Notes: a model not told the origin generated them from the sequence alone. Counted from the first letter of the stretch, positions 2 through 31,709 are shown. The stretch: DNA of 64,000 nucleotides from an uncultured Acidimicrobiia bacterium (GCA_963704825.1 CAVPHV010000021.1:38771-102770); one strand, 5' to 3'. Made by a program: numbers and translations.

Positions 2-2008
2 CGATTCGGGATAGGTGGCTCCGGCCTCCGGCACGGCGAGTTCGACCGTTGGCACCGCCATATCTTCGTTTGCCGGTGGCAGCGTCGTGGTCGTGGTCGT
101 CGTGGTCGTGGTCGTGGTCGTCGTGGTCGGCGCCACCGTCGTGGTCGTCGTGGTCGGCGCCACCGTCGTGGTCGTCGTGGTCGGCGCCACCGTCGTCGTG
201 GTCGTGGTCGGCGCCACCGTCGTCGTGGTCGTCGTGGTCGTCCCCGGCCCGCCGCTCACCACGAGGAAGGCGGCGTCTTTGGCTGGGATGGTGATGGTGG
301 TGACCGGTGTGGGGTCGCCTTGGGGGTTCTTGTTGACGACGTCGTAGTAGGTGCCGCCCAGGTTGTGGGTCTTGGTGGTGCTGGTTGGGTTGACGATGAT
401 CAACCCGTTGCTGTAGGCACGGGCATACAGCCCTGAGGGCAACGCCAACCCCGATACCTGGGAGGTGGTTTCACTCGGGGTACCCCAGTCCCAGAAGTAC
501 AACTCGTCGGGCCGGTCGAGGTTGAACGGGCCCCCATAGGTGTACTTGGTTGCCGAGGGGCGATGCGCCAACAGCAACGACCCGTACGCAAACCGCTCAT
601 AGCGTTGCGGATCGGGCACCCCACGATTCCAGCGCACCCAATACGCTGCGGGCCAGTTGTTGGCCATGGTCCGAATCGTGCGGTCCATCTCCGCGGTCCA
701 CGAGAACCCGTTCCCCCACGACCCGTCGGTACGCATCCAGTTCTCCATCACCCCCGCATCGGTGTGATTGGCCAACAACTCATCCGCACACGAATCATTG
801 TTCTGGAGCGTGTTCGTCACCATCTTCTTCCCCGGCAACTCGGAACGCAGCCCAGCAAGCTTGGTTTGCTGATGGTCACCCCACCGATCCCGCGTCAGTT
901 TCTTGTTCACCGGGTCGTCCCACCCCCACACCGGGTTCCCCGCCCAATCGGCGTTGTTGTACTGCACACACGACGTCACATCCAACCAGAACGCGTTATA
1001 GCCCTGGAACCCCGACCCGAACGTGTCCCGAATCCGATCCGCGATCCACCCATACCCATCGGGCTGCCACAACTTGATCCCATACCGCAACGCATACCGG
1101 CTGTCGTCACGACCCGGAATCCCCGACAGGCCCTGATCATCGGCCACTGCGGTCTTCGACCCGATATACACCGGCGACATCACCCGAGCATTCGCCGCAT
1201 GCGACGTCGCCTCCGTCCCCCACAAACCACGCCGCACCGCCAACACCACATCCCCACCATCAACCGACGGGTTCCCCGTGATCTGCATCAACTCGTCATC
1301 AACCCGAACAAACGACACCACATCATGCGTATTCGCCGTATGCGCCCCCGCCGCCGTCCCCGCACCACGCGAACTGCGATACGGCCACGTCGCCGCCTCA
1401 CCCGACGGCCGCACCGACGCTGCGGACTTGACCCGCACCGTGGTCGCCCCCGCCGACAACGACCCCGACAACTTCGCCACATCCGCCCCATTGTCACCCG
1501 CCACATACGGCGCATAATTCCCCGGCCAGAACGTCGCGATCGCCAACGGGGCATTCGCCTCCAAATCCCCCGCCTCACCAAACAACAACGGCGCCGACTG
1601 CGACGACTGACTCACATACGAACCATTCCGATAATTCGACGCCACCACCCCACGCGACGCCAACTTCGCCGCCAACGTCGACGACGACGACCCCCGACAC
1701 AAATCACCCAACGTAAACACATTCGAACCTTCGCCGTGGAAATGCTCATACCAGACGGTGAGTTCGGCCAACCGCGCGTCCAAGGCGCCACCCGTCAACT
1801 CATTCACCGCCCGAATCTGTCCACAATCACCCACCTCAGTAAACAAATCGACATACGGTTCATCGCCCATGGCGGCATCCGGATAGGCGGAGCTGATGCC
1901 CATGCCCGGGGTCAGGCTCAGCGCGAGCCCGGCCAGCAGAACAAAAGCGAGAGTAGCGATCAGGGCGCGTCGAATGGACGACTTAGCGCCGCTTAGCGTG
2001 GATAGCAT
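2..2008 (-). CDS. Secreted putative glycoside hydrolase (GHL15-like) with Thr-rich linker; 3' end runs off the window
   Basis: Missing from the ORF track because there is no stop in the window. ATG at 2008 after a GAGGAAGGG RBS. Translates as MLSTLSGAKSSIRRALIATLAFVLLAGLALSL (signal peptide), then a core near-identical to 28524-30121 (GYNAFWLDV, GVMENW, YARAYSNGLIIVNP), a poly-Thr/VAP linker and the start of an Ig-like repeat (AVPTVELAVP). Confidence 0.8.
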   Translation of the reverse strand, partial: MLSTLSGAKSSIRRALIATLAFVLLAGLALSLTPGMGISSAYPDAAMGDEPYVDLFTEVGDCGQIRAVNELTGGALDARLAELTVWYEHFHGEGSNVFTLGDLCRGSSSSTLAAKLASRGVVASNYRNGSYVSQSSQSAPLLFGEAGDLEANAPLAIATFWPGNYAPYVAGDNGADVAKLSGSLSAGATTVRVKSAASVRPSGEAATWPYRSSRGAGTAAGAHTANTHDVVSFVRVDDELMQITGNPSVDGGDVVLAVRRGLWGTEATSHAANARVMSPVYIGSKTAVADDQGLSGIPGRDDSRYALRYGIKLWQPDGYGWIADRIRDTFGSGFQGYNAFWLDVTSCVQYNNADWAGNPVWGWDDPVNKKLTRDRWGDHQQTKLAGLRSELPGKKMVTNTLQNNDSCADELLANHTDAGVMENWMRTDGSWGNGFSWTAEMDRTIRTMANNWPAAYWVRWNRGVPDPQRYERFAYGSLLLAHRPSATKYTYGGPFNLDRPDELYFWDWGTPSETTSQVSGLALPSGLYARAYSNGLIIVNPTSTTKTHNLGGTYYDVVNKNPQGDPTPVTTITIPAKDAAFLVVSGGPGTTTTTTTTVAPTTTTTTVAPTTTTTTVAPTTTTTTVAPTTTTTTTTTTTTTTTLPPANEDMAVPTVELAVPEAGATYPES
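84..242. repeat. Intragenic low-complexity tandem repeat (27-bp unit encoding TTTTTTVAP, plus poly-Thr)
   Basis: gtcgtggtcgtcgtggtcggcgccacc-like unit repeated about four times, flanked by (gtc/gtg)n. Confidence 0.9.
261..1858. repeat. Copy A of a 1598-bp near-identical inverted repeat (partner 28524-30121)
   Basis: The reverse complement aligns end to end with 28524-30121. Both ends give the same coordinate sum (30382), so there is no net indel. Only scattered substitutions. Confidence 0.92.
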
Positions 2009-2174
2009 ATTCCCTTCCTCACTCATCTCATCTGCTGAATTGGTGAGGGTTACACAGTCGGTCCAGTCGGGCAACGCCTTGAGGAGATTCTTCCGACCCT
2101 TTTAGGACCGGCTTGTGGTCGCTCCGCGGCGTGAAACTGTCGCTTTCAGGCGCAGAACCGCGCCGGCGGGGGCG

Positions 2175-3296
2175 TCAGCTGCCGAAGGCGTTGGCCTCCA
2201 GCGCGGCATCGAGAGCCTCGAGTTCGTCGGGCGTCAGCAGGCGGTCGTAGTTGCGAGGGAGTTCGACCGCACCGGCGCCCTGACCAACCGCCCACTCCAC
2301 CGCGGCCGCCAAGTCGCCGACCAGCTCCGGCTTGGCGGTCTGGAGCGAGATCGGGGCACCAAGCGCCGCCATCGACTCGTACATCCGCTCATACCGGCCC
2401 TCGAACGGCGGCCACCGGATACTGTTGTTCTCGAGCACACACCGCTCGCCGAGCACCTCTCGGCAGTAGCTCATCATCGAGACCGTGAACTCGAGATCTA
2501 CACCGACCGTGCCATCCTGGTTGATCACCTGATAGGGGTTGAAGGCGAGCCCAGATCGCGTCGATCTCCACACCTGATGTGCCTCGACTTGGCGACGAAG
2601 GCACTCGCGGTCTTGAACCGAGTCGAACTCTGCCGCGAGCAGATTTGCGACGGAGACCTCATCAGCTGCGTCGCGGATGAAGGGTTCCGCGTAGACCGTC
2701 ATGCACTGCGAGATCGTGACGACTCTCAGTTCCGGCACGAGGTCGTAACGGTCGGCGAGTTTGGTATGCAGGTCCGTGTAGGCGTCCCCATAGTCGTCGG
2801 TCCAGAATCGTCCGATGGTGCCACTCACTTTGTCCTGGGGATCCATGATCGCCACGGGCCCTCCGGTGAGGCGCTTGAGTTCCTCAGGAGCCCCCAGACC
2901 GCCGAGGATGCGGAGCTTGATCTGAAGGCCCGTCCCGGGTTCTGCCGCTTCGATGCGGCGCACCTCTTCGATGGCGAGATCGAGTGGATTGCCCTCCAAG
3001 ATAGGACCAAACGGTTCGGCTTGAAGGTCTGACCAGTCCACCAGGACCACAAAGCCGTTGACAACCTCGCGCAACTCCTTGGGTGGCAGCATGTGGCGAT
3101 CTACGAGACCGGCCATAGCCGGCTTGAGTTCCACCGGCGGCTCGGTCGCTTCCGACGCTGCGATCGGATCGTCGCCGCCGGTTTGGCATCCTGCCATGGC
3201 AACGACAACCACCAGCAAGGCCGACAGCTCCAACAACCGGCGGCGTCTCGTTCGAACGCCGCCGGTTGCTACCACTTCGCTCCCAGCCTGGATCAT
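2175..3296 (-). CDS. Lipoprotein with putative glycoside hydrolase (TIM-barrel, GH42-like) domain
   Basis: Arg-rich n-region, hydrophobic stretch and lipobox MAGC. Motifs VDWSDLQ and FWTDDYGDAYTDLHTKLADRYD. Follows the 2244-aa gene after a 13-bp gap. Confidence 0.65.
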   Translation of the reverse strand: MIQAGSEVVATGGVRTRRRRLLELSALLVVVVAMAGCQTGGDDPIAASEATEPPVELKPAMAGLVDRHMLPPKELREVVNGFVVLVDWSDLQAEPFGPILEGNPLDLAIEEVRRIEAAEPGTGLQIKLRILGGLGAPEELKRLTGGPVAIMDPQDKVSGTIGRFWTDDYGDAYTDLHTKLADRYDLVPELRVVTISQCMTVYAEPFIRDAADEVSVANLLAAEFDSVQDRECLRRQVEAHQVWRSTRSGLAFNPYQVINQDGTVGVDLEFTVSMMSYCREVLGERCVLENNSIRWPPFEGRYERMYESMAALGAPISLQTAKPELVGDLAAAVEWAVGQGAGAVELPRNYDRLLTPDELEALDAALEANAFGS

Positions 3297-3309: not shown

Positions 3310-6300
3310 TCAGCTTACGCTGAACCGCACCCATGGCTTGGTCTGGTCCGAATTGCCCGCCGCGTCATCGGCGCGAAGGCTGATGGCAAACTGCCCAGGA
3401 GCCGTCGGCGTGAAGTCGTAGCTCCACGTCGTGAGCGTTCCACCCGGTGTCCCCAGCGTGGTGTCGCCCGGGATCCAGATCCAGCCAACCTGCCAGTCGG
3501 TTCCGTTCCAGAACAGAGTGTTGGCGACGTCCTTGATCGCGATCCGGACCCGTGACACGCCGACGTTGTCCGTGGCCTCACCGGAGAACGTGATCGGGCC
3601 AACGGGGAAGTCCTGGTTGTTGGTCGGGACAATCACGGTTCCGTTCGGGTCGATCGTGTCCGGCACCTGGTCGGTGAGGTAGAACAGCACCCACGGCTTC
3701 GATTGGTCTTGGTTCCCGGATGTGTCTTCCGCCCGCACCAAGATGTTGAACTCACCGGCGGCCGGAGGAATCCAGCCCAGGCTCCACGCCGTGCTCGGCG
3801 CCCCCGGGTTGGCCAGCACCGTCTGCAAATACCGGAACCCGGTCACCCAACCCGTCCCGTCCCAGTACTGGTCGGTGAGACGATTCTTGATCGCGATCTC
3901 GACCTCAGCCACGCCCACGTCGTCGGTGGCTTCGCCGGAGAACCCGGTCCACGTCGCCATGTCGTAGGTCGCCTGGTGCAGTGGCACCGCTACGGTGGCA
4001 TCCGGCTCGACCGTATCCCCGGTCGGGATCGTGAGAGAGAAGGCCACCCAGGGCTTGGTTTGGTCCTGGTTGCCGGAGGTGTCTTCGGCCCGAACCAGGA
4101 CGGCATAGTTGCCCGGTCCGGCCGGCACCCAGTCGTTGCTCCAGTCGGTATCCACCGCATTGGGTGCGGCCAACACCGTCGGGAGGTAGACAAAGGCGGT
4201 CTGCCAAGTAAGGCCGTTCCACCAGGTTCCGGCATCACGATCTTTGATGGCAACGACGACCTCGGCAACCCCGACATCGTCGGTTGCGTTGCCGGTAATG
4301 CCGGTCCACGTTGGCAATGGGTAGGTCTGCAGGTGCTGCGGAACGGTGACCGTTGCGTCCGGATCCACCGCGTCCGGCGGCAGTTCGCTCACGGAGAACC
4401 GAACCCACGGACGGGTCGAGTCACTGTTGCCGGCGCCGTCGGTGGCCATCACCGCAATGCCGAAGTCGCCCTCCCGCGGCGTCCACGCAAAGGTCCATCC
4501 GGTGGACACCCCGCCCGGAGCGTCGAGGACGGTGACGTGACGCTTGTAACCCGGGGAGAACGTCACGCCGTCGGCCTCGAGCCACTCGTCCGTGTTGCGA
4601 TCCTTGATCGCGACCTGAACCATGGCGACTCCGCTGCCATCGACCTCGTCTGTTGCGGTTCCGGAGATCACGGCGATTTCGGCAGCCGTATACACCTCGT
4701 CGTTCACCGGCAGCGTGACCTCACCGTTTGGCTCGGTGGTGTCGGGCGGCGTCGGCCCCGAAAGTGCCAGGTCCCAGTACGTGATTCGGTTGTTGTCGTG
4801 GTCGCTGACGGCGAGCGTCATCTCGTCCGGCGACACTGCGACACCCTTGGGGCCGCTCAGCTGTCCGAGGCCAACCGCCGTGGAGAAGGTGCCCGAGGTT
4901 CCGAAGAACTTGACCAGATTGTTGCCCGAGTCGGCGACCAGCAGCATTTCGCTGTCGCCAAACATCTCAACCGCAAGGTTGTGCGGGTTGCGCACCTGAT
5001 TCTGAGCGGTGCCTCCGGTGACAATGGTCCCGATCAAGTCACCGGCAGCGTTGTACTTTGTGATCGAGTCGGTGGCGCCGTCGTTGGCGGAATAGATGTT
5101 GCCGGCGGAGTCGACGGCGACGCCGCGCGGTGACACCACGGAAGCCGTGATCACATCGAGGGTGAAGCCGGTGACATCCAAACGGATCAACCGGTTGTTG
5201 AGGGTGTCGGCGATCCAGTAGGAACCGTCGGCGGCAATCGCCGTCTGATGGGGCCGACCAAGCGTCGTCGACACCGGCACAACCGTGGAGTCAAAGGTGC
5301 CATCGGCTGCGAACAGTGACAGGCGGTTGTTCTCGCTGTCGGTCACGACAACTCTGCCGTCGGCCGCCATGATGGCGGCACGCGGGAAGATGAGGCCGCC
5401 GTCACCCGAACCGTAGGCACCCCACTCGGTGGCAAACGACCCATCAGGGTTGAACTTCTGCATCCGATGGTTGAACCAGTCGGCCACGTAAAGGTTGCCG
5501 GCGTCGTCGTAGGTGAGGCCGAACGGGCCGTTGAACCCACCGGGACTCGGCGGCGTTCCGCCAATCGTCTCGGCATACGAAGGCGCGCCACCACTCACGG
5601 TGAACCGCTGCAACTGGAATGACCACTGGTCGCTGACCACAACGTCGCCGTTGTCCATGAAGATCCCCGAAGGCTGCCGGAACTGGCCGGGGCCGTTCCC
5701 GTAGCCGCCGATCGGCGCCGCAATGGGGGTTCCGTTGGTCTGGACGTGAGCCAGCTGCAGGTTCCTCGCATCACCCACCCAGAGCCCGCCGCTGCCGTCG
5801 GCGGCGATGGCGCGGGGACGGTCGATGAAGAAGCTGCCGAGCTCGGCGCCCGTCGTCGGGTTCAGCGAAACGACCCGGTCGTTGTCGGCATCACCGATGT
5901 ACAGATTGCCGTCATCGCCGATCTCGATCGTGCGTGGCCGCGACAGGGGTGTGCCGCCAACTTCTGTTGTCTGCCACATCTCGAGGTCGGTGGTCGCGTT
6001 GATCTTGACCACCCGGTTGTTGTAGGTGTCGGCAACGTAGACGCCGGTGGCATCGGCCACCACGCCCCATGGCCCGTCAAGTCCCGTGCCACGCAGCTCC
6101 GTCACCACCGTGCCGGTCTTGGTGATCTTGACCACCTTGTTGTCACCGCTGGATTGATCGCCAACCCAGAGGTGGACCCCGTCTGGGTCGAGGGCAACGA
6201 CCCGAGGGTCGTTCCAACCGACATCGGATACCACCGTGACGTTGCGAGCGGCGTCGATTCTCACGATCCGACTGTTACCCGAGTCGGCGACATACCAATT

Positions 6301-9300
6301 GGTTCCGTCGTGGGCGCCGTCGCCCGGGTAGAGCGGAGCCACTCCTGCGGGGTTCGAAGCCTCGCCGCCGTAGGTGTCGTCGAAGTTCACGAGATTCTCG
6401 CCGACGCGGAACTTCTGGACACGATGGTTGTAGGTGTCGGCTACGTACAGGAACCCGTTGTCGTAGCGCAGCGCGTGCGGCCGGGCGAACTCGCCGTTGC
6501 CGGTCCCCGGGGCGCCGAAGCCGTCACCGAGGTCGTTGAGGTCGCTGTCGAAGTGGCGGATCCGGCCGTTGCCGGTGTCGGCAACCCAGAGGGTGCCGTC
6601 GGCAGCCAGTGCGATGCCTTCAGGAGCTGAGAGCCCTGCGGCGGCCTGCGCAACGAAGGTGCCATTGATGGTGAGCTTCTGGATCCGGTTGTTGCCGGAG
6701 TCGGCAACGTACATGTGCGTGTCGTCGACGGCCACACCCTGGGGAGTGTTGAACTGTCCATCCCCGATCCCAAAGCTCCCGATCGCGGCGCCGTAGGTGT
6801 CCGTGGCCGGGTTGTACGGAAGGATGCGGAAGTTGTACGTATCCACGATGTAGAGGATGCCGTTGTAGAACGTGAGCCCCTCAGGTCCGTTCAGTGGGCT
6901 TCCCGGGGGACCCTCGGTCTCGAAGCTGCTCCCATTGAGGTTCGCATCCCAGAGTTGCACTCCGCCGCCGCGAGTGTCGGCCGCCCAGACCGTACCGTCG
7001 TCGGCGACGGCAACAGCCTCCGGCCAGCTGAAGGTGCCCGGAGCAGTTGCGCGCGAACCCTTGTGAGCAACATAGTTGCCGTTGGCATCGAGCTTCTGGA
7101 TGCGATGGTTGAGCCGCTCCATGACGTAGATCGAGCCGTCGGGTCCGATGTCAATGCCGTAGGGCTGGGCGAACCCGGGAACGGGGGCCGTGGCGCCCTC
7201 GATCGACGAAGCGTAGGTCCCATCGGGGTTGAAGACCTCGATGCCGTTACCCCAGAAGTCCAGGCCGTAGACCTTGCCAGCAGAGTCGATGGCGACGCGG
7301 CGCAGGTGGTTGAATAGCCCAGGCTCGAAGCCGGGCGCGCCGGGGTCGACACAGAAGTCGGGGTGAACCGAGCAACGGCCTGCCCACTCTGCGGTGAAGG
7401 ACCAGTCGCCTGCGCTGTAGTCGTAGATGACGACACGGCCGGTTCCGGTGTCGGAGACGTACATCCGATTGCCGGTCGAATCCCACACCATGTTGTACGG
7501 GAAGTTCAGGTCTCCGTCGCCGGGACCGCCGAGTTCGTACACCGGGGTCGAGTTCCACGAACCCCCAGGGGTGACGTCGAAGGCCTTGATACGGTGGTTC
7601 TTGTAGTCGGACACCCAGAGGTAGCCGTCGGGACCCCGCGCCGCGTCGCGCGGACCGTTGAGGCCAACCGCCGGTGAGACCCACTGGAATACGCCGGCGG
7701 CATCCCACGCTTTGATTCGGTCCTGAGCGCTCGACGCCACGAGGACCTGGCCGTTGACGGCATCCCAGCTCAAACCGATAGGTGTGTTCAGGCAGTCGCT
7801 ACAGGTGCCCGTCGTCCCTCGGGTCCACACGTGATTGCCCGCGGCGTCGAACTTCTGAATCCGGTCGTTCTCGGCGTCGGCAACATAGATGTTCCCCACA
7901 TCATCGATCGCGACGTCGCGGGGGCTCTCGAACTCGCCGTCTGCTCCGCCATCGGAACCAAACTCGCCGAGCTTGGTCCCGTCGAGGGCGTAGCGCAGAA
8001 TCCGGTCCATCCCGGTATCGGCGATCACGAGCTGATTGTTGGTGGCGTCGTATTCGAACCCCGACGGATACATCGCAGCGGTTGACTGACCCGCCGGCGT
8101 GCCCACATACGGTGCGGGGGCATCAGCCACGGCAATGTCCCACGTGAACACGTGGATCTGGTCGTTGTAGGTGTCGGAGACGTAGACGAGATCGCCGTCG
8201 ACCGTAACCGCGGCTGGATGGTTGAAGCCCGGGCCGCTGAACTCGCCGATCACGTTGTAGGTGCCGTCCATGATGACGATCTTGTTGTTGTTGGAGTCGG
8301 CGACGTAGATACGACCGAGGTCATCGACGGCGATGCCTTCGGGATGGTCGAAGCCGCGGTCGACGTTGCGCTCGGTCACATAGTTGACGCCGTCGCTGGT
8401 TTGGACGACCTTGATCCGGTTGTTGTTGGTGTCCGAGATCAGGAGCCGGCCGCTGATGGGATGGACGACCACTCCCTGCGGGTTGAGCATCTGACCCCAG
8501 TTGGATCCTTTGGACCCGTACTTGCCGAGGTACTGGCGAGTGGCGACGTCATACGCCTTGATCCGGTGGTTCTCGGTGTCGGCGATGAAGGCAATGTTGT
8601 CGGTCTCGCGAATGTCGAGGGCGTAGGGCCACACAAACTGATTGTCGCCATCACCCGCACCGGCTCCGATGAACTCGATGCCCGTGCAGTTGGGATCAAC
8701 GATTTGGATGCGGTGCTGCTTGGTGTCGGCAATCCAGATCTCACCGGTGGTCTTGTCGACTTCGAGACCGCGCGGCCAGTTGAACTTTCCGAGCTCAGCC
8801 CCGGCAGACGCTCGAGTTCCACAAACCGAGATGACCTCTCCGCCGCCGGTCACGTTGCCTTCAGCGTCCAAGGTGAGTGGGTTCATCCGTACGAACCTGT
8901 GGTGCACGGTATCGATGACGTTGAGAACGCCGTCGGCGCCGATCCCCACTTCGCGTGGCTCGTGGAATACCGAGGTATCGGACGGGACCCCCGGCGGGGT
9001 GCCGATCTCCTGGGCCCAGACATACCCGGTTGGGGTGCGCTCGAAGCGCTCGACCTTGAAGCCCCACAGGTCGGAAACCCAGACGTCGCCGGAACCGTCC
9101 GTGGCGACAGCAGAACGGCGCATCGTCGTGATGGTGCCGGTCGTCTCGGGAGTGCCCTCCACACCGAACTTGTCGATGAACGTTCCGTCGAGTTCGAACG
9201 TCTGCACCCGGAAGTTGAGCGCATCGGCGACGTAGAGGATCTCCCGACCAAGCACCGGGTCGGTGGCCACTCGAACGCCGTACGGCGTCTTGAATTGCCC

Positions 9301-10044: not shown

Positions 10045-10424
10045 CTGTGCCGCCTCACGTTGTGCTCATCCCTTGTTGACCCCCACCAATACATCCCGCT
10101 CTGGCACGCCAATTCAGGCGCGCGTGCGCCACCAGGTGATTGGTGCATTTCATTCCCCGACCATCCAGGCACGGTTCCCCCCGCTCCCCACTCTTCCAAG
10201 CCTCAGCAGCCGCGTAGCGCGGCTTCCGTCGTTGCGATTCCTATTGACGCCAGCGTCTGGCACCTTCGGGCCACGATTCCCCCTTGTGGAATCCCCGAGG
10301 TTGTGCCCTCTACGAGCATGTAAGAATCTTAACGGGGCCACGGTGGTATGTCACCAGGAATTGGCCCATTTTGTCAGCCTGTTGCACTGACTAGTCACCA
10401 TGTGCGTCGCGGCGGAGGTTGGGT

Positions 10425-10841
10425 TCAACGGAACCGCACCATCACCTCGTGATTCCCCCGGCCGGGAGGCGGTCCAACGTCTCGATCTTCCACTTCAACC
10501 CAGGCATGAGCAGAGATGTCCTCCCCCGCTTCGGGGAGGCCGATGGCGAGCAGGGCGGGAGATCGCTGCTCATGAAGCACCCGAAACACGACCAATGACC
10601 CGATGAGACAACGTGGCCGATAGGGCCCCAACCGGAGGAGGCGATACGTTGCCCAGCTCACCCGACGCGGCGGATGCACATCGCGGGCGACCGACGCGCC
10701 CACCGCCAGGTTGCGAACGAGTTCCGGGAGGGGGCGGCGGCGCAGTCGCAACCCGACCTGCACGACCACAAAGGCCCGGAAGATCCGCAGCGCGAGGCGG
10801 ATTCGACTCGCCGCCGAAACAGGCGCCCATGAGTCGGTCAT
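10425..10841 (-). CDS. Lasso peptide biosynthesis B2 protein (transglutaminase-like leader peptidase)
   Basis: 138 aa with catalytic motifs RCLIGS and AHAWVE. ATGA overlap with the upstream kinase gene. Confidence 0.88.
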   Translation of the reverse strand: MTDSWAPVSAASRIRLALRIFRAFVVVQVGLRLRRRPLPELVRNLAVGASVARDVHPPRRVSWATYRLLRLGPYRPRCLIGSLVVFRVLHEQRSPALLAIGLPEAGEDISAHAWVEVEDRDVGPPPGRGNHEVMVRFR

Positions 10842-13545: not shown

Positions 13546-13761
13546 CAAGACTCCTGTCCCCCGCGTCGCCGGCCCTCCAGGGGACCGCCACAAACTACCA
13601 TCGAATGCCAGCCAGCATCTCGAACCAAGCGTTGGCACCACCCGTTCAACCGACCCGCGGACCAAACGCCCCCGACCAAGAAAAGGGTGGCCTATCCAGC
13701 GCCGGTCGAGTACGCTTGGTCTCCAAGAGAAGGCAACCGGAATGGGGCATGGGGGAACATC

Positions 13762-13932
13762 ATGAAACCAGAGTCTTTGATCACGTACGAGCGACCCACG
13801 GTCGTTGACCACGGAAGCATCGCGGACCACACCTTCGCCGTATTCGGCGTACCCGCGGCAACGGCCGGCAAGACGGGCAGCGGTCCGTCGTTCCGTATGG
13901 ACAGCTTGGGCGAAGGCTCCGGCCTTTCGTAG
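13762..13932 (+). CDS. RiPP precursor peptide with a lasso-type leader, 56 aa: MKPESLITYERPTVVDHGSIADHTFAVFGVPAATAGKTGSGPSFRMDSLGEGSGLS
   Basis: GGGGGA RBS then ATG at 13762, TAG at 13930-13932. YERPTVVDHGSIADHT matches the lasso leader YxxPx(L/V)xxxGxxxxxT. Directly upstream of the PqqD/RRE gene. C-terminal Ser. Confidence 0.88.
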   Translation: MKPESLITYERPTVVDHGSIADHTFAVFGVPAATAGKTGSGPSFRMDSLGEGSGLS

Positions 13933-13964
13933 AGACCATTCGAGACAGCGTGCCGGGTTTGCAC

Positions 13965-13995: not shown

Positions 13996-14020
13996 AATAC
14001 GCCCCCTTTGAGGTCCGTCC

Positions 14021-15515: not shown

Positions 15516-15524
15516 TCGTCTTGG

Positions 15525-19883: not shown

Positions 19884-20117
19884 TTCGCTCCCCCTTTTGT
19901 CCCAAGCCCCTGACGATTCCTACAAAGCCCCCCGAGGAGCCCTCCCTTTTTGCACACCTAGTCGTGCGCAGCGTGAAACCTACCGATCGAAATCCGAAAG
20001 CTCAATGGGCAATTGCGAAGAATCAAGGAAAGGCCAGCAAGAGTCCCCAATAAAAACCCCCCGGGGCTGCCCAGGATGGGGTCGGTGATGGCTCACCATG
20101 AGGGGGATACTCGGAAT

Positions 20118-20157
20118 CGGGTCTTCGGGCCGCCCAGATCGGCAGCCCGAAGACCCG
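20118..20157. terminator. Hairpin terminator downstream of NHL paralog 2
   Basis: cgggtcttcgggc...gcccgaagacccg 13-bp stem plus extension, in the same position as the hairpin after paralog 1. Confidence 0.7.
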
Positions 20158-20168
20158 TCGTTTGTTGG

Positions 20169-23100: not shown

Positions 23101-24522
23101 ACCACCCATCCGGTCACCAATGATCACCCGACGCCCGTAGAACTCGAAGTCCACCGGCCACCGGAAATGACCCGGATCCGTGTCGTCACTCCCGATCAGG
23201 CCGATCTGGGTGACGTAGTTGCCGGTGTACGTGTAGACCTGAACGTGGTGACCACGCTCATTGGCGATCCACACCCGGCGGGTCACCGGATCGATCCCGA
23301 TCGACCGCGGATAATTCATGTCATAGGGACCACCCGGGCCGCGCTTGCCCCACGTATTGAGGAACTGACCCGAAGCCGAGAACCGGTCAAACCGCTGATT
23401 CCAGGCCTCGGCGATCCACACATCACCCGTGAGGGCGTCGACGGCGACGTCACGGGGCTGACCCAGATAGCCCTCAGGCGGCAGCCGCGACGGATCCGGC
23501 GCCTCCAGCAACGGAGTCCCAAACGCATTGAACTTGAGCGTCCGGAACCCACCAAAGTCCGCCACCCACACATTCCCATCACCATCAACCGTCACCTGAC
23601 GGCCACCACCGGTGAACTGACCCGGACCGGTGCCCTCACTCCCAAAGCTACTGAGGTACTGACCATTCATGTTGAAGACGTCAACATCGGAGTGTTCCGC
23701 ATCAACGATGTAGACCCGGCCCAGGTCCTCGTTGATCGCCACCCCACGCTCATCACCACCAAGGAAGTTGCCGGCCGTCTCGGAGAGCAAGGTGCCGTCG
23801 CTCGAATACCGATAGATGCGCCGGTTCCACGCATCCGACATCCACACCACACCATCGGAGGTGACGTCGACGCCGTAAAGCCGCGGCGCCTCATTCACCG
23901 AATCCGGGAACACCGGCCACTCCTGGACAATGGTCACCTCTTCGGTGGCGTCATTCCAGTCCAACTCGAGCATCCGCGGCGGATTGTCCTCATCATTGGT
24001 GAAGTGGCTGTCCATCACCCACATGTGACCGTTGTCATCGATCGTCAACCACACCGTATAGAACGCCCGGATCGTGTCGAAGCGAGTCCGCATCGCGACG
24101 TCCTTGGAATACATGAAGTTGCCGTTGACGTCGTACTTGGCGATCGCAACATCCAGCGGGTTGTCCTTCAACTCCGACACGTAGATCGACCCATCATTGG
24201 GATCAATACCCACCGAATACGGCTGTCCGACGTGATCATCACGCCAGAACTCACCGAGGTAGTTCCCCGAGGTGTCATAACGACGCAACTTGAAGTGCAG
24301 ATAGTCCGACACGATGATCTCGTCGCTGACCGGGTTGTACTGGACCCCCCACGAGAACACCCCAGGCCGGCCCTGCCCACCAATCGAACGCTCAAACCGT
24401 GGCGTCACCCACGGAGCCGAAGCCGCATCGGCCGATTGTGCAGGCATCACCGCTACCAAGGCCGCTGCAACCACAAACACTGACACGAGCGCCGTCAACC
24501 AGCGCCGCTGAATAGAAGCCAC
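20169..24522 (-). CDS. Secreted NHL-repeat/Ig-like protein (paralog 2, tandem duplicate of 15525-19883) with one frameshift near 21035
   Basis: GTG start at 24522 (VASIQRRWL). ORFs 20884-24588 and 20169-21062 join if one extra base (14 vs 13 nt relative to paralog 1) near 21030-21040 is removed. Ends DPTKPWVPFSVS. Confidence 0.82.
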
Positions 24523-24810
24523 TATCGCTTCCCCCTTTGTGCCCAAGCCCCAAACAATTCCTGGACCCCCAAACCAAGGGGGCCTCACCCTGTGCCCATC
24601 TTCTCACGAGCGCCCAAAAACCTCTAGCCCACAATGTGATGTCACACTGGAGAAGGCCGCCCGCCGGGCGCACCCTCCGCAGCCCGATCGCGACCGGTCA
24701 AGCCCGCAGCCGCAAATTCCTCTGACCGTGCGTCACCCACCGGGTCTAGAATGTGGTCGGGAATGAAGGTGGGGCCTGGCGACAGGCCGGGAAAACAGGG
24801 GGCGTGTCTG

Positions 24811-27800
24811 ATGGTGAAACGAGTGATGGGGCTGCGACGGCTGCAGTCTGCATCCCGCATCGCGATATCGGTTGCACTACTTCTCTCGGTGCTCGTGGTG
24901 GCACAGGGAGAAGCTCGTGCCGAATGGTCGCCGCCGGCTTTCGAGCGATCCATGGCGGGCATCGGACGCCCCGGGGTCTACGCGTGGGGTCTGGCCTACA
25001 ACCCCGTGAGCGACGAGATCATCGTTTCCGATTACCTCAACTTCAAGGTGCGTCGCTACTCGACGGACGGTCGCCACCTCGGTGACCTCGAGGACCAACC
25101 AGGTGAGCCCTGGTCGGTGGCCACCGATCCCAACAGCGGCGACATCTACTACATGAACAACTGGGACAACCGGTTGGAGCGCTTCGACTCGGCCGGCAAC
25201 CACATCAGCACCATCAGCGTCAGCAGTGGATGGAACGCGTGGATCGACGTCGACCACCGCGGATGGATCTGGATCATTCGTGGCGGACCGCAGGCAACCA
25301 ACTTCCGGCTCGACCACTACCACCCCGACGGCACCAAGCTCGGCCAGTGGAACATCAACGCCCCGGCGCCACTCGAACCGACCATGTTCGGCATCGAGGT
25401 GGCCGGCGACGGGTCGGTGTTCCTCTCCGACGCCAACAACGGCCTGATCCACGTCTACGACAACGACGGCAACTACGAACGCAGTTTTGGTGAAGGGCAC
25501 CTCTCCGGGGGCGACGCTCGAGGACTCACTCTGGACGAAACCAACGGCTGGGTCTACGTATCGGATGCCAGCAGCAACACCTTCGTCAAGTTCACGATGG
25601 CGGGCGACTACCTCGGCGCCTATGGAGGCACCGGCGAAGCGCCCGGCTTGTTCAACGGCCCCCGCCAGCTCGCCGTGGACGACGACGGCGACGTCTGGGT
25701 CGCCGACTTCGGCAACTACCGGTTCCAGGAGTTCGCATCGGACGGCACCCATCTGGGCACCTACCCGGACCCGCCCCAATCGCCTCCGGCCGGCCACCTC
25801 GCCCACGCCGCCGACTCGGTCGTCGACCCGGCGACGGGTGATGTGTGGGTCGCCGACACCTACAACCAGCGCTTCCACCGACTGGCGGCCGACGGGACAC
25901 CCACCGGGGTGTGGGGCAAGCGAGGCGGCACCGACGGTTACGGGATGAACTACCCCAGCACGATCGGGTTCGACCCCGTGCTGCGGCGCGTCTGGGTCGG
26001 GATGGAAGAGGGGCGCCACATCAAGGTCTACGACGACCAGGCGAACTACCTGTTCATCATCGGGGATCAAACCAAGACCCCGGAGAACCCCGGCTACCTG
26101 CGCAACGTGACCGACATCGACTTCTACCAGGACAAGGCATTCATCTCCGACGAGCAGGCGCACAACATCAAGGTGCTGGACGCCGACACCGGCGAGGAGC
26201 TCTACGAGATCGACGCGTATGACGGCAGCGGTTGGAGCGGGAACCACGGGCTCGCTATCAACCCGGCGAACGGCGACCTCTTTGTTGCCAGCTACAGCCT
26301 CGATCGGGTCAGCGTGTTCGATCAGAGCGGCGCCCTGCAATACAGCTTTGGATCGAGTGGCACCGGAGACGGTCAGTTCAGGTCGCCACGCGATGTCGCC
26401 ATCATCGATGATGTCGTATACGTCTCGGACGCCGAGACGAGCCGGGTCCAGGCGTTCCAACTCGACGGCACCTATCTGGGCCGGTGGGGTGGCTGGGGCA
26501 ACGGCCCCTACCAGTTCCGCAACCCGATGGGACTCGACACCGACCCCGCCGGTCGCCTCTACGTCACCGATGTCGAGAACGGAAGGATCACCGTCTTCAA
26601 CCCCTCGGTCCCCAAGCCTGCCTTTGTGTGGGGCCGCCCCGAGGTCACGCTCGCCACGCCCGGAAACGGCCAGCTGTTCACGGGTGACCAACTGTTCGTG
26701 ACCGGGACGGCGACCGACAACGACGGTATCGCCACCGTCGGGGTCCGGGTGCAGAACGCCGCCACCGGTCTGTGGTGGAACGGGAGGTCGTCGAGTTGGC
26801 AAACGGCCGCAGTCCCGAATATGGGTTTGTGGATGGCCCCATCGGCGCCGGCCACTTCGGTCACCTTCAGTTGGTACTTCCCGGCGATCGAACCGGGAGC
26901 GTCCTACACCATCGAGGTCGTGGCTCGCGACGTGCACAACACGCCGAGCAACCCCGCCGCCACGGCAACCGTGACGATTGCCGACGACGGACTCGTCGAC
27001 CTCGAGGACCCGACGCTCACCATGGCCAGCCCGGTTCCCGATGAGGTATTTGGGTCGCTGGACTCCGTCACGATCGAGGGGTCGGCGGCCGACGACGTTG
27101 CCGTCGACTTCGTCGACGTTGCCATCCAGGACAAGACAACCTCGCTGTGGTGGACGACGGCCGGCGACTGGGGCTCCTTTGCCTGGCTGGCTGCCGATCT
27201 GGCTGCGCCCGGAACACCGGCGACCGACTGGAGCTACGGATGGGTGCCTCCTGGCGAAGGCGACTACGCCGTCTCGAGTCGGGTCGGCGACGCCGCCGGC
27301 AAGGAGGCAACCCTGCCGCAAACCCTCTTCAGCGTCGTGGACGCAGCCGCCGACACCGAACCGCCCGACGGCACGGTCTCTCAGCCGGCTCGCAACGAAG
27401 CCGTTCCGTTGGGGACGGTCTCCGTCCAGGGCATGGCGACCGACAACATTGGAGTCGGCGCGGTGCAGGTCGCCGTGCGCAACAACGAGACACTCCAGTG
27501 GCTGCGGCCGAATGGAACCTGGGGCAACTTCGCCTGGCACACCGCCAGCATGGCGAGCCCAGGTGAGACCGAGACCACATGGTCGTGGTCCTTTGATGCA
27601 ACCGATGTCGCGGCCTACGGGCTGGCGGCCAGAGCCACCGACCTCGCCGGCAACATCGACCCGACGCGACCGTGGATCCCCTTCTCGGTCTCGTCGGGCG
27701 TCGGAGATACGGTTCCTCCCAACGCAACGGTCACGACGCCGACCCGGCTCCAGACACTGCCGGCCGGCCTCTTCGATGCCGGCGGGTCGGCAACCGACGA

Positions 27801-28050
27801 TGTCGGGGTTGCCGGCGTCAGCCTGGCAGTGCGCGACAACACGACATTGCTTTGGCTTCGCCCCAACGGCACTTGGGGGAACTTCGCCTGGTTACCGGCG
27901 CAGCTCACCAATCCGGACGCGGCGTCAACCGATTGGACGTTCGCCGCCACGCTCCCCGATCCCGGGGACTATGCGATATCGGTACGGGCCGAAGATACGT
28001 CGGGAAACATGGACCCGACCCGACCCTGGGTCCCCTTCACGCTCGAGTGA
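24811..28050 (+). CDS. Secreted NHL-repeat protein with four Trp-rich Ig-like repeats (divergent paralog 3)
   Basis: Probable ATG at 24811 (AGGGGG RBS). Shares the N-terminus FERS..G.GRPGV..WG..YNPVSDEIIVSDYL with paralogs 1 and 2. Ends DPTRPWVPFTLE. Confidence 0.88.
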   Translation: MVKRVMGLRRLQSASRIAISVALLLSVLVVAQGEARAEWSPPAFERSMAGIGRPGVYAWGLAYNPVSDEIIVSDYLNFKVRRYSTDGRHLGDLEDQPGEPWSVATDPNSGDIYYMNNWDNRLERFDSAGNHISTISVSSGWNAWIDVDHRGWIWIIRGGPQATNFRLDHYHPDGTKLGQWNINAPAPLEPTMFGIEVAGDGSVFLSDANNGLIHVYDNDGNYERSFGEGHLSGGDARGLTLDETNGWVYVSDASSNTFVKFTMAGDYLGAYGGTGEAPGLFNGPRQLAVDDDGDVWVADFGNYRFQEFASDGTHLGTYPDPPQSPPAGHLAHAADSVVDPATGDVWVADTYNQRFHRLAADGTPTGVWGKRGGTDGYGMNYPSTIGFDPVLRRVWVGMEEGRHIKVYDDQANYLFIIGDQTKTPENPGYLRNVTDIDFYQDKAFISDEQAHNIKVLDADTGEELYEIDAYDGSGWSGNHGLAINPANGDLFVASYSLDRVSVFDQSGALQYSFGSSGTGDGQFRSPRDVAIIDDVVYVSDAETSRVQAFQLDGTYLGRWGGWGNGPYQFRNPMGLDTDPAGRLYVTDVENGRITVFNPSVPKPAFVWGRPEVTLATPGNGQLFTGDQLFVTGTATDNDGIATVGVRVQNAATGLWWNGRSSSWQTAAVPNMGLWMAPSAPATSVTFSWYFPAIEPGASYTIEVVARDVHNTPSNPAATATVTIADDGLVDLEDPTLTMASPVPDEVFGSLDSVTIEGSAADDVAVDFVDVAIQDKTTSLWWTTAGDWGSFAWLAADLAAPGTPATDWSYGWVPPGEGDYAVSSRVGDAAGKEATLPQTLFSVVDAAADTEPPDGTVSQPARNEAVPLGTVSVQGMATDNIGVGAVQVAVRNNETLQWLRPNGTWGNFAWHTASMASPGETETTWSWSFDATDVAAYGLAARATDLAGNIDPTRPWIPFSVSSGVGDTVPPNATVTTPTRLQTLPAGLFDAGGSATDDVGVAGVSLAVRDNTTLLWLRPNGTWGNFAWLPAQLTNPDAASTDWTFAATLPDPGDYAISVRAEDTSGNMDPTRPWVPFTLE

Positions 28051-28274: not shown

Positions 28275-31200
28275 GTGATGCAGAAGGGAAATCTTGTGTT
28301 TCGCAGTCTCGTCACCGCGCTTGTCGCATTCACCACCGCCATCGCCGTCGTCGGCGTCGTTGGCCCCCTCGACCTCGCAGGCTCACCCGCTCAGGCAGCA
28401 GAGCCCGCTCCGATAGCAGAGACGGCCCCACCGGCAGAGACGGCCCCACCGGCACAGCCCGCCCAATCAGCGGAGGCCGCTGATGCGGCGATTCCTGCGG
28501 CCGCCGCAGCTCCGGGATCCTCACCGTATGTGGCCTTGTTTACTGAGGTGGGTGATTGTGGACAGGTGGTGGCGACCAATGAGTTGACGGGTGGCGCCTT
28601 GAACGCGCGGTTGGCCGAACTCACCGTCTGGTATGAGCATTTCCACGGTCAGGGTTCGAATGTGTTTACGTTGGGTGATTTGTGTCGGGGGTCGTCGTCG
28701 TCGACGTTGGCGGCGAAGTTGGCGTCGCGTGGGGTGGTGGCGTCGAATTATCGGAATGGTTCGTATGTGAGTCAGTCGTCGCAGTCGGCGCCGTTGTTGT
28801 TTGGTGAGGCGGGGGATTTGGAGGCGAATGCCCCGTTGGCGATCGCGACGTTCTGGCCGGGGAATTATGCGCCGTATGTGGCGGGTGACAATGGGGCGGA
28901 TGTGGCGAAGTTGTCGGGGTCGTTGTCGGCGGGGGCGACGACGGTGCGGGTCAAGTCCGCGGCGTCGGTGCGGCCGTCGGGTGAGGCGGCGACGTGGCCG
29001 TATCGCAGTTCGCGTGGTGCGGGGACGGCGGCGGGGGCGCATACGGCGAATACGCATGATGTGGTGTCGTTTGTTCGGGTTGATGACGAGTTGATGCAGA
29101 TCACGGGGAACCCGTCGGTTGATGGTGGGGATGTGGTGTTGGCGGTGCGGCGTGGTTTGTGGGGGACGGAGGCGACGTCGCATGCGGCGAATGCTCGGGT
29201 GATGTCGCCGGTGTATATCGGGTCGAAGACCGCAGTGGCCGATGATCAGGGCCTGTCGGGGATTCCGGGTCGTGACGACAGCCGGTATGCGTTGCGGTAT
29301 GGGATCAAGTTGTGGCAGCCCGATGGGTATGGGTGGATCGCGGATCGGATTCGGGACACGTTCGGGTCGGGGTTCCAGGGCTATAACGCGTTCTGGTTGG
29401 ATGTGACGTCGTGTGTGCAGTACAACAACGCCGATTGGGCGGGGAACCCGGTGTGGGGGTGGGACGACCCGGTGGACAAGAAACTGACGCGGGATCGGTG
29501 GGGTGACCATCAGCAAACCAAGCTTGCTGGGCTGCGTTCCGAGTTGCCGGGGAAAAAGATGGTGACGAACACGCTCCAGAACAATGATTCGTGTGCGGAT
29601 GAGTTGTTGGCCAATCACACCGATGCGGGGGTGATGGAGAACTGGATGCGTACCGACGGGTCGTGGGGGAACGGGTTCTCGTGGACCGCGGAGATGGACC
29701 GCACGATTCGGACCATGGCCAACAACTGGCCCGCAGCGTATTGGGTGCGCTGGAATCGTGGGGTGCCCGATCCGCAACGCTATGAGCGGTTTGCGTACGG
29801 GTCGTTGCTGTTGGCGCATCGCCCCTCGGCAACCAAGTACACCTATGGGGGCCCGTTCGATCTCGACCGGCCCGACGAGTTGTACTTTTGGGACTGGGGT
29901 ACCCCGAGTGAAACCACCTCCCAGGTATCGGGGTTGGCGTTGCCCTCAGGGCTGTATGCCCGTGCCTACAGCAACGGGTTGATCATCGTCAACCCAACCA
30001 GCACCACCAAGACCCACAACCTGGGCGGCACCTACTACGACGTCGTCAACAAGAACCCCCAAGGCGACCCCACACCGGTCACCACCATCACCATCCCAGC
30101 CAAAGACGCCGCCTTCCTCGTTGGCAACGTGACTGCGGGTGATCCTCCGCCCAAGTGTGACGGCAAGACGGCCACCATCGTCGGCACCAACGGACCCAAC
30201 ACTCTCATCGGAACGTCCGGCCCTGACGTGATTTGGGGCGGCGGCGGCAACGACACCATCAAGGGCCTTGCCGGCAACGACACCATCTGCGGCGGAGGCG
30301 GCAAGGACGTCATCTTTGGCGCCGGGGGCAACGACACCATACTTGGCGGCAAAGGCAACGACACCATCTGGGCAAGCGACGGCTCAGACACGGTCTCCGG
30401 CGGCAAAGGTAACGACACCATCTGGCCGGGCGGGGGCACCAACGAGAGTCGCGGCAACGGGGGCGACGATGCCATCCACGCCACCTTCGGAAACAACGAT
30501 TCGTACGGCGGCAACAACAATGATGTCATCTACGTCGCAGCCGGATCCGGCGAGGTCTCCGGCGGCAAGGGCATCGATACCATCGACGCCCGGGATGCGA
30601 GTTCTCGCGTCGAGATCGACGTCGCCAACCCGGACGGCAAGGGCGGCACGTTCTCGACGACCCAAGGCAGCGCCGTCTTGTTCGGCATCGAGCACGCCGT
30701 CGGCTCCGCGTTTGGGGACGAGTTGCTCGGGGACTTCAGGAACAACGTGCTCACCGGACGAGGTGGTCCCGACACCATCCGCGGGTTTGCCGGCAACGAC
30801 GCCCTCTACGGCAGCAGCGGCAACGACTACCTCAACGGTGGCAGCGGCGCCGACCAGAACTACGGAGGGGCCGGAACCGGTGATGAGTGCACCAACGGCA
30901 CTCCACACGATTGCGAGTCCGGTGGCGGCGGTGGCGGTGGAGCCTGCACACCCGACAGTGCCCCCTACGGAATCGGGGAGAAGACCGTCACCCTGGTCGA
31001 CCCGAGTCGGGGCCGGACGCTGCAGACAACCATCTACTACCCGGCGACCTCGAACGGGACGAACGCTCCGGTTGTGTGCGGACCCTTCCCGATGGTCGTC
31101 GCCGGCCACGGTGCCGCCGGCACCGGCCGCAGCGCCGCGGACCTGTTCCGGTTCCTCGTGAACGATGGCTACGTTGTGGTCGGCCCGACCTTCCCGTCCG

Positions 31201-31709
31201 GCTTTCAGTTCGACCAAATGGCCCGCGATGTGAGCTTCGTCATCGATGAGGTCCTTGACATGCGGAGCGGGAACGACCCGATGACCCAGTTCGACGGGCA
31301 GAACATCGGCTTCATCGGCACCTCTCTCGGCGGTGGAGTGGGATACTCGCTGTTTTTGAACTGTTGCACGGACTCGAGGGTCGATGCAGTCCTCCCCCGT
31401 GCCGGCGTCGTGCCGACGGGGTCGTTCAACTACAACAACGGTCCCGCACTACTCGCCATACACGGAGACGCCGACACGGTGGTACCGATTGCGCCCGCCC
31501 TCAGCTTCTACAACTCGGCGCAGTCACCGAAGGGCTTCATCCGCCTGGCGGGCGTCGGTCACGACCTCAACGTCGGGCCGCACCCCTTGCTACGAGACGT
31601 CGCCCTGGGATTCTTCGACTGGCAGCTCAGGGGCGACGCCGGCGGCAAGAACGTGATCCTCCAATCGGTGAACAGCTTGGGTCTCGCCACGATCCAGCAC
31701 GACTGGTAG
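28275..31709 (+). CDS. Secreted multidomain protein: GHL15-like putative glycoside hydrolase + RTX Ca-binding repeats + alpha/beta-hydrolase
   Basis: Signal peptide and Pro/Ala linker. Shared GH-like core, GGxGxD nonapeptides, then a C-terminal domain with VVAGHG, GTSLGG (GxSxG), HGDAD and GVGH (Ser-Asp-His triad). Confidence 0.85.
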   Translation: MMQKGNLVFRSLVTALVAFTTAIAVVGVVGPLDLAGSPAQAAEPAPIAETAPPAETAPPAQPAQSAEAADAAIPAAAAAPGSSPYVALFTEVGDCGQVVATNELTGGALNARLAELTVWYEHFHGQGSNVFTLGDLCRGSSSSTLAAKLASRGVVASNYRNGSYVSQSSQSAPLLFGEAGDLEANAPLAIATFWPGNYAPYVAGDNGADVAKLSGSLSAGATTVRVKSAASVRPSGEAATWPYRSSRGAGTAAGAHTANTHDVVSFVRVDDELMQITGNPSVDGGDVVLAVRRGLWGTEATSHAANARVMSPVYIGSKTAVADDQGLSGIPGRDDSRYALRYGIKLWQPDGYGWIADRIRDTFGSGFQGYNAFWLDVTSCVQYNNADWAGNPVWGWDDPVDKKLTRDRWGDHQQTKLAGLRSELPGKKMVTNTLQNNDSCADELLANHTDAGVMENWMRTDGSWGNGFSWTAEMDRTIRTMANNWPAAYWVRWNRGVPDPQRYERFAYGSLLLAHRPSATKYTYGGPFDLDRPDELYFWDWGTPSETTSQVSGLALPSGLYARAYSNGLIIVNPTSTTKTHNLGGTYYDVVNKNPQGDPTPVTTITIPAKDAAFLVGNVTAGDPPPKCDGKTATIVGTNGPNTLIGTSGPDVIWGGGGNDTIKGLAGNDTICGGGGKDVIFGAGGNDTILGGKGNDTIWASDGSDTVSGGKGNDTIWPGGGTNESRGNGGDDAIHATFGNNDSYGGNNNDVIYVAAGSGEVSGGKGIDTIDARDASSRVEIDVANPDGKGGTFSTTQGSAVLFGIEHAVGSAFGDELLGDFRNNVLTGRGGPDTIRGFAGNDALYGSSGNDYLNGGSGADQNYGGAGTGDECTNGTPHDCESGGGGGGGACTPDSAPYGIGEKTVTLVDPSRGRTLQTTIYYPATSNGTNAPVVCGPFPMVVAGHGAAGTGRSAADLFRFLVNDGYVVVGPTFPSGFQFDQMARDVSFVIDEVLDMRSGNDPMTQFDGQNIGFIGTSLGGGVGYSLFLNCCTDSRVDAVLPRAGVVPTGSFNYNNGPALLAIHGDADTVVPIAPALSFYNSAQSPKGFIRLAGVGHDLNVGPHPLLRDVALGFFDWQLRGDAGGKNVILQSVNSLGLATIQHDW
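28524..30121. repeat. Copy B of the 1598-bp inverted repeat (partner 261-1858)
   Basis: Reverse complement of 261-1858, near-identical. Confidence 0.92.

Follow-up and report, generated by a model that had tools for sequence, protein, structure and literature searches.

A lasso-family peptide cassette without an exporter in an Acidimicrobiia polysaccharide island, and the link of its clade to glycan genes

Introduction

Paeninodin and pseudomycoidin are the closest characterised relatives of the system described here, a kinase- and nucleotidyltransferase-bearing cassette of the lasso peptide family that lies in a 64,000-nucleotide stretch of DNA (the window) from an uncultured Acidimicrobiia bacterium (GCA_963704825.1, CAVPHV010000021.1:38771-102770). 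As far as the available portions of the reports on these peptides describe, HprK-like kinases phosphorylate the C-terminal Ser of the precursor (PMC8498205, PMC6993621), PsmN is needed for the one or two hexoses on the Ser phosphate of pseudomycoidin (PMC6993621), and neither peptide inhibited the bacteria tested (PMC8498205, PMC6993621). The co-localisation of paeninodin-like clusters with capsule genes is already in print for Bacilli, where these clusters and the LPP clusters sit within loci for capsular polysaccharide (Popov et al. 2026, PMC13381572). In the accessible text of that article the roles of the Bacilli clusters are given as unknown, and a part in biofilms is merely speculated upon.

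The window cassette resembles the pseudomycoidin cluster psmCAKB1B2ND of Bacillus pseudomycoides, as laid out in the portions of the source at hand (PMC6993621), in its split B1 and B2 proteins, an Asn-synthetase-type cyclase, an HprK-like kinase, a PF14907-type NTP transferase and a precursor that ends in Ser. Unlike that cluster it has no ATP-binding cassette (ABC) exporter, no Asp or Glu at core positions 7-9, an A-B1 pair divergent from C-K-B2, an Actinomycetota host, and surroundings of NHL/immunoglobulin-like (Ig) repeat proteins and glycan genes. With the capsule-embedded clusters of Bacilli, again as described in the accessible text (PMC13381572), it shares kinase and NTP-transferase machinery for a peptide that is ribosomally synthesised and post-translationally modified (RiPP) within glycosyltransferase-rich polysaccharide loci, whereas the phyla are others, an SpI-type peptidase is absent here and the core motif is its own. 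LPP clusters combine an SpI-type leader peptidase with the lack of a cyclase; the present cassette does have a cyclase, and signal-peptidase families had no match among the open reading frames (ORFs) scanned in the window or its left flank. The transporter differs as well, being MsbA-like in the Bacilli clusters (as far as described in PMC13381572), DrrAB-like in the clade studied here and absent from this genome. That clade is strongly tied to glycan genes.

Results

A complete lasso-family cassette

The window corresponds to positions 38771-102770 of a 125-kb contig (C21) in a 3.9-Mb genome of 25 contigs that is 95% complete; coordinates below are those of the window unless C21 is named. A complete kinase/nucleotidyltransferase-type lasso-family cassette, comprising A, B1, B2, C, K and N, occupies positions 10425-15440. 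The preliminary description of the window, made from its sequence, lacked A and B1 in its gene list, although both are present.

Three of the genes form a tightly packed unit on the minus strand, with overlaps of 4 nt at both the C/K and the K/B2 junction. C (11761-13545) encodes an Asn-synthetase-type macrolactam synthetase homologue, the cyclase (PF00733, E 1.1e-28, plus GATase_7). It matches the NCBIfam lasso-cyclase model NF033535 with an E-value of 1.2e-38, yet scores 133 bits where the cut-off is 525, so its membership of the lasso cyclases holds at family level only. The PP-loop SGGxDS of C is invariant in the alignment of the cyclase clade. K (10838-11764) is an HprK-like peptide kinase, for which PF07475 gives an E-value of about 1.3e-5 to 1.7e-5, under the Pfam gathering cut-off; the P-loop GPSRHGKTS is present, TIGR04352 matches at E 2.2e-10, and the best match among solved structures is the HPr kinase 1KO7 (E 2.8e-5). 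B2 (10425-10841) is a transglutaminase-like leader peptidase (PF13471, E 1.9e-13; NF033537, 48.9 bits, cut-off 33).

On the plus strand, divergent from C-K-B2, the gene for the precursor A (13762-13932) encodes 56 aa, a 25-aa leader followed by a 31-aa core ending in Ser. It is separated by 88 bp from B1 (14021-14302), a PqqD-like RiPP recognition element (NF033530, E 2.3e-9, under the cut-off; TIGR04248, E 3.3e-10) whose cluster representative matches PF05402 with an E-value of 2.8e-17. Converging on B1 from the minus strand is N (14295-15440), a PsmN-like nucleotidyltransferase (PF14907, E 1.8e-39, 136 bits against a cut-off of 31.2) whose translation shows the metal-binding motif GDIDLL. 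All six ORFs are open and the catalytic motifs are retained, namely the PP-loop, the P-loop, the Cys/His/Asp of B2 and the DxD of N. A promoter and terminator scan of 9900-15700 stayed at chance level, with one promoter-like site (0.6 expected) and three terminator-like sites (2.9 expected), and was set aside.

The placement of the cassette agrees with what had been described. C-K-B2 points the same way as the gene of a 2244-aa NHL/Ig protein, both on the minus strand and 380 bp apart, and N starts 84 bp after the gene of a 1452-aa NHL/Ig protein.

Glycan genes recur beside the cyclase

An alignment-based scan yielded 288 relatives, and 80 loci, 36-50% identical, were kept. ORFs of at least 60 aa were labelled by profiles built from clustered neighbours, and the cluster representatives were annotated with Pfam; the 'unknown' clusters of 332, 173, 456 and 509 aa, which by position are antisense to K, B2, the exporter and N, were left out of the counts. 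An orthologue of K occurs in 75 of the 80 loci. The hosts of the clade belong to Actinomycetota, Gemmatimonadota, Chloroflexota, Acidobacteriota and Binatota.

For 24 loci on long contigs we compared the surroundings of the cyclase with 40 control regions of 20 kb, taken from the same contigs at a distance of 60 or 120 kb. One or more of 12 glycan families occurred in 22/24 cyclase loci and in 5/40 controls, and two or more in 15/24 and 2/40 (Fisher p 7.6e-7, a value to be read with the origin of the profiles in the test loci and the relatedness of these loci in mind). The priming transferase family Bac_transf (PF02397) was searched by its Pfam model in the 24 whole genomes. In 14 of them the cyclase has a copy no more than 15 kb away, and in nine no more than 10 kb away; for the 15-kb distance about 0.6 would be expected by our own arithmetic from 62 matches in about 79 Mb. 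The 14 genomes fall into about six separate cyclase lineages, and in four (G054, G055, G056, G059) the copy near the cyclase is the only one of the genome.

The association also extends to close pairs. A same-strand glycan gene stands within 300 bp of a cassette gene in 24 of the 80 loci, in 13 different pairings, for example GHL15-B1 (seven loci), PolysSynt2-B1 (four), epimerase-C (three) and ATPase-GT4 (three). At least six cyclase subclades carry different glycan families. The tightest glycan-cassette link seen is that of L049:1-12970, a one-strand array of GT2, GT4, epimerase, GT2, epimerase, Bac_transf priming transferase, GT4, N, K, B2, C and B1, near which stand two lasso precursors of canonical type.

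The cyclase tree places the window, on a long branch, together with loci of Acidimicrobiia and Phytoactinopolyspora (SH-aLRT, the approximate likelihood-ratio branch support, 96). Two loci from cultured Phytoactinopolyspora isolates, L065 and L070, have a cyclase and a precursor without an adjacent K, B2, N or ABC-2 pump and could serve as models; at L070 the same strand carries a Bac_transf gene 227 bp upstream.

Far from the window in this tree are 11 Gaiellales-type loci with GHL15, sulfotransferase, Wzx, GT4 and NHL genes. Homologues with 26-47% identity to the sulfotransferase, Wzy_C-like, NHL and both GT4 genes of the window's island stand beside the cyclase in 7-12 loci, mainly of Gaiellales, and two distant cassette lineages therefore adjoin the same set of families. 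The likeness is closest with the Gaiellales/Thermoleophilia loci L026, L027, L033, L037, L038, L040, L043, L047, L095 and L097, where the cassette is accompanied by a sulfotransferase, a Wzy_C-like protein, two GT4 enzymes, GHL15 and NHL, there within 10 kb. In the Gaiellales loci GHL15 is directly upstream of B1, and their cyclases, on a distant branch, are 41-45% identical to that of the window. Unlike this genome, these loci keep an ABC-2 exporter, and they hold one NHL gene of about 750-860 aa where the island has eight giants.

A neighbourhood analysis had been proposed in the preliminary description as a check on the linkage of the cyclase to NHL/Ig, GHL15 or polysaccharide genes. Its glycan part is borne out by the recurrence described above, and its NHL/Ig part is weak (5/24 cyclase loci against 3/40 controls). 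NHL genes number about 2-5 in each of three Gaiellales-type genomes, with one such gene per genome no more than 5 kb from the cyclase; this synteny was taken as a single event. The NHL repeats of the present genome lie mostly in the island, with some on three other contigs, and a congener (G002) has several NHL/Ig paralogues, 32-47% identical, without cyclase or N.

Loss of the exporter

The observation that no exporter, isopeptidase or immunity gene stands near the RiPP genes holds on closer inspection: ABC_tran is found in none of the 40 ORFs scanned in the window, and no isopeptidase or immunity gene was found by the cassette. A profile of the ABC ATPase of the clade matched 77 ORFs in the genome and none on the 125-kb contig. 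No orthologue of the ABC-2 permease of the clade was found in the genome (95% complete), the best match reaching 48 bits on another contig.

As a trait of this kind of cluster, the exporter-less state does not stand. Among the 40 orthologous loci with at least 7 kb on both sides, K is present in 39, the ABC ATPase in 39, B2 in 38, N in 36, B1 in 35 and the ABC-2 permease in 32, while among the 40 control regions the ATPase profile had hits in nine and that of the permease in none. Because 39/40 orthologous loci have the ATPase and 32/40 the permease, the absence is a local, lineage-specific loss. In L019, L020 and L067, the three nearest relatives that bear the kinase and have full flanks, A is directly followed by the two pump genes, whereas here B1 follows A, so the pump is missing at the syntenic A-B1 place. 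The pump of the relatives is DrrA/DrrB-like, its best NCBIfam matches being DrrA (197 bits) and DrrB; with these matches we rejected the idea of a glycan exporter of the Wzm/Wzt or TagGH type. Orthologous clusters with their own exporter, in unrelated contexts and without enrichment for surface or glycan genes, had been named as what would speak against an envelope role. The relatives do have their own exporter, yet they are enriched for glycan genes.

The precursor family of the clade

The leader of A exactly fits the lasso RiPP recognition element motif in the form YxxPxVxxxGxxxxxTF, with V in place of L. We found this leader motif in 64 of 81 sources, which together gave 67 precursors with 62 distinct cores. 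Only 15 of the 62 cores have Asp or Glu at position 7-9, and just five combine this with a Gly, Ala, Ser or Cys start, so that for most cores of the clade a canonical lasso ring is out of reach. For the window core we also considered an additional internal cleavage point, one leaving a canonical ring of 8 or 9 residues, and dropped it, since none is conserved across the cores listed (read by eye).

The cores are instead marked by a motif towards their end. D-x3-E-x-S, most often as DKFGE[YF]S, occurs in 51/62 cores, 15-48 residues into the core and 0-12 residues from its end, and 47/62 cores have Ser at the C-terminus. In 49 of the 51 cores with the motif a Lys lies 8-10 residues ahead of the Asp, giving K-x7-9-D-x3-E-x-S; shuffling of the upstream residues gave an expectation of 11.5 ± 2.8 with a maximum of 20 in 2000 shuffles, a figure that is not a probability, since the cores are related. 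The window core (13837-13932) starts with Ala and keeps K12, D22, E26, S28 and the C-terminal Ser at clade spacing, with DSLGEGS where DKFGE[YF]S is usual and with both Cys lost.

No convincing match to the leader or to the C-terminal acceptor motif was found in any large protein of the genome. In the literature we found no description of the clade, of its motif, of a DrrAB-linked kinase cassette, or of Lys-Asp cyclisation by an Asn-synthetase homologue. The core motif K-x7-9-D-x3-E-x-S, carried by mostly non-canonical lasso cores, is new here.

An accessory polysaccharide island

Inspection of the sequence left of the window, as had been suggested, showed that the island goes on for about 25 kb with NHL/Ig and polysaccharide genes, to a total of about 58 kb. 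This left part holds four more NHL/Ig genes (1063, 975, 1478 and 977 aa), which brings the island to eight NHL/Ig paralogues, together with two GT4 glycosyltransferases, a Wzy_C protein (PF04932; the O-antigen ligase family in the Pfam description), a MurJ/Polysacc_synt_3-type flippase (PF03023/PF13440), a Wzz protein (PF02706), three Sulfotransfer_3 proteins by Pfam and a fourth sulfotransferase-family gene recognised through clustering. With Wzy_C, flippase, Wzz and glycosyltransferases all present, the left flank fits a putative Wzx/Wzy-dependent polysaccharide locus.

The only matches of the genome to the sulfotransferase and GHL15 profiles lie in the island, as do its two best GT4 matches. 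C, N and the Wzy_C-like gene were not found in two genomes of the same genus (91% and 89% complete) or in the family members searched; in this lineage, therefore, the presence of the cassette goes with that of the glycan module. Metagenome proteins are 86% and 69% identical to C, and another is 89% identical to the lipoprotein described below. The 86% cyclase and the 89% lipoprotein each list a longest contig of 83,988 bases and probably lie on one contig. Single-protein scans of genome and metagenome contigs, and an alignment scan of metagenome contigs, returned no relative.

Proteins flanking the cassette

Of the flanking proteins named in the preliminary description, the four NHL/Ig giants were recovered at 2244, 1452, 1234 and 1099 aa, the 1234-aa one being part of a split tandem copy. 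The 2244-aa protein (3310-10044, minus strand) is a secreted NHL beta-propeller/Big_7 Ig protein (NHL, E 1.3e-124; Big_7, E 5.3e-11) with an N-terminal hydrophobic signal or anchor. The 1452-aa protein (15525-19883, minus), an NHL/Big_7 secreted protein by its family matches, has a signal peptide in its translation. Its tandem copy (20169-24588, minus) is split, one ORF having 1234 aa (20884-24588) and the other 297 aa (20169-21062) with a Big_7 domain. The two copies form a direct repeat (15477-19921 and 20119-24562) with 91% identity over 4466 columns (about 4.4 kb), and the split reflects either a frameshift or an assembly error. The 1099-aa NHL/Big_7 protein (24751-28050) is on the plus strand (NHL, E 2.4e-32; Big_7, E 3e-18).

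Two of the flanking proteins are GHL15-like. The first (1-2074, minus strand, running past the left edge of the window to C21:38082) is a secreted GHL15-like and Ig-like protein of 921 aa at full length with a DUF4625/Ig C-terminal part; the second (28275-31709, plus) has 1144 aa, with a GHL15-like domain followed by RTX repeats (HemolysinCabind, E 3.4e-45). Their assignment is suggested by profile comparison and not by Pfam, whose GHL15 model (PF14885) is silent on both up to E 10: hhalign aligns them over about 300 columns, at a probability of 97.3%, with the GHL15 family (A2) of the related loci (921-aa protein, E 1.7e-11; 1144-aa protein, E 2.4e-11), and the representative of that family passes Pfam GHL15 with 55.5 bits against 27. 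Inside both genes lies a 1.6-kb inverted repeat of 98.7% identity (261-1859 and 28523-30121), which brackets a 26.7-kb segment containing the cassette. Such a repeat might promote inversion or gene conversion, or it may stem from misassembly.

Between the first of these and the 2244-aa gene, a 373-aa lipoprotein (2175-3296, minus) without a Pfam family confirms an earlier call of a glycoside-hydrolase (GH)-like lipoprotein. It has the lipobox AMAGC, and its AlphaFold2 model (predicted local distance difference test 89.7) is a TIM barrel, for which Foldseek ranks GH35/GH42/GH14/GH5 enzymes highest (E about 1e-7, with a modest TM score of about 0.45). It belongs to a large family without a Pfam model, represented by 143 clusters at E up to 1e-5 (listed members P0108-P0226), in which Glu 204 and Glu 345 never vary and Glu 289 hardly does; a Big_7 Ig domain, as in the NHL giants, is present in two of the listed members.

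RTX repeats are found beyond the island too, in four more proteins to its right (31364-32611, 36663-38186, 38228-39277 and 62733-63887) and in a further RTX calcium-binding repeat protein at C21:1809-3161. No type I secretion genes were seen among the ORFs scanned. A 961-aa protein with malectin and PKD domains (58895-61780) is likely a carbohydrate-binding surface protein and falls outside the present finding. At 39408-49581 two aldehyde:ferredoxin oxidoreductase genes flank two MoeA-type molybdopterin/tungsten cofactor genes, one fused to ThiS-like and the other to PBP-like domains.

Discussion

We favour, at a probability of roughly 0.55, the view that the window holds an intact but exporter-less member of the kinase/nucleotidyltransferase lasso family, from a clade functionally tied to glycan-building genes, whose probable product, a phospho-glycosylated peptide that may bear further decoration, would act together with the envelope glycan and not as a diffusible antibiotic. 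In such a pathway B1 would bind the YxxP leader, B2 would cut after its Thr-Phe, and C would form an isopeptide ring. By analogy with the distant Bacillus homologues, K would then phosphorylate a C-terminal Ser and N would add sugar onto the Ser phosphate. The neighbouring glycosyl- and sulfotransferases may decorate the product further, and its place of action may be the envelope.

A number of observations weigh against this view. The glycan profiles were built from the test loci themselves, with a lax threshold, related loci are not independent, and the link to NHL genes is weak. In the island itself, the cassette has NHL/Ig genes as direct neighbours and the GT4 and sulfotransferase genes lie 26-35 kb from it, and a Bac_transf priming transferase is absent from the contig, the three matches of the genome being on C3, C5 and C6 (WecA-type transferases were not searched). 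The assembly is in 25 contigs and the region holds two repeats, the 98.7% inverted and the 91% tandem one, so that misassembly is possible. The near-universal DrrAB-like pump of the relatives fits a discrete exported molecule. In the window core the first acidic residue is D22 and none stands at positions 7-9, which leaves no canonical lasso ring; the core is also without the Cys and aromatic residues of its nearest relatives, and the cyclase has a long branch (0.77, where the median is 0.17). Together with the loss of the pump here, these two features could mean decay.

These points can be read in several ways. The peptide may be a free phosphorylated or glycosylated lasso-type product with an unrelated role, for example in signalling or competition, that hitch-hikes in a fast-changing accessory island whose NHL/Ig, GHL15 and polysaccharide genes are unconnected with it. 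We regard this as a serious contender, if a rather unlikely one. It would account for an island whose C, N and Wzy_C-like genes were not found in 2/2 congeners, for the rearrangement evident in the 4.4-kb tandem duplication and the 1.6-kb inverted repeat, for NHL/Ig paralogues that occur without the cassette in G002 and elsewhere in this genome, for the weak NHL link and for the drug-type pump of the relatives. It sits poorly with a glycan link that recurs in at least six cyclase subclades with different families, with glycan neighbours that are often at operon distance (24/80 loci), and with the presence of the same family set beside two distant cyclase lineages, the present one and that of Gaiellales. 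If the cassette were instead a remnant that has drifted since the exporter was lost and no longer yields a functional product, the exporter pair absent from its syntenic site, the long cyclase branch, the loss of both Cys and the replacement of DKFGE[YF]S by DSLGEGS would all be expected. Against this, the six ORFs are open with their catalytic motifs kept, the core retains K, D, E and S at clade spacing, and the metagenome relatives (cyclases at 86% and 69%, lipoprotein at 89%) fit an island maintained in a sister lineage, and we judge decay to be quite improbable.

Two further proposals give the peptide a more intimate part in the envelope. The preliminary description, in its strong form, had the mature peptide joined by a covalent bond to surface proteins or polysaccharide, where it would serve as a tag, cross-linker or anchor. 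The Ser-phosphate-sugar linkage of pseudomycoidin, as the available part of the source gives it (PMC6993621), could in principle be extended to a polymer, and the Wzy_C-family protein in the island and the absent exporter are in keeping with this. On the other side, the leader and C-terminal motif were found on no large protein in the genome, and the relatives export through a pump of the small-molecule type; such attachment seems to us very improbable. More speculatively, the clade might not be a true lasso family at all: the cyclase would close a side-chain ring between the conserved Lys and the Asp/Glu, the phosphorylated adjacent Ser would be the attachment point for an envelope glycan that nearby sugar enzymes build or cap, and the product would here leave with the glycan by way of the island's flippase and not through the lost DrrAB pump. 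We think this scheme unlikely as a whole.

The two kinase/nucleotidyltransferase-type lasso peptides characterised so far showed no antibacterial activity in the portions of the report available (PMC6993621). With the window and its 80 related loci, and with controls, the association with polysaccharide loci now reaches beyond Bacilli to at least five further phyla. The clade defines a precursor family in which a canonical ring is mostly not possible and a fixed Lys/Asp/Glu/Ser pattern is kept, and the window provides a natural exporter-less variant. The glycan neighbours of the clade hint that such peptides work with the sugar coat of the cell and not as antibiotics.

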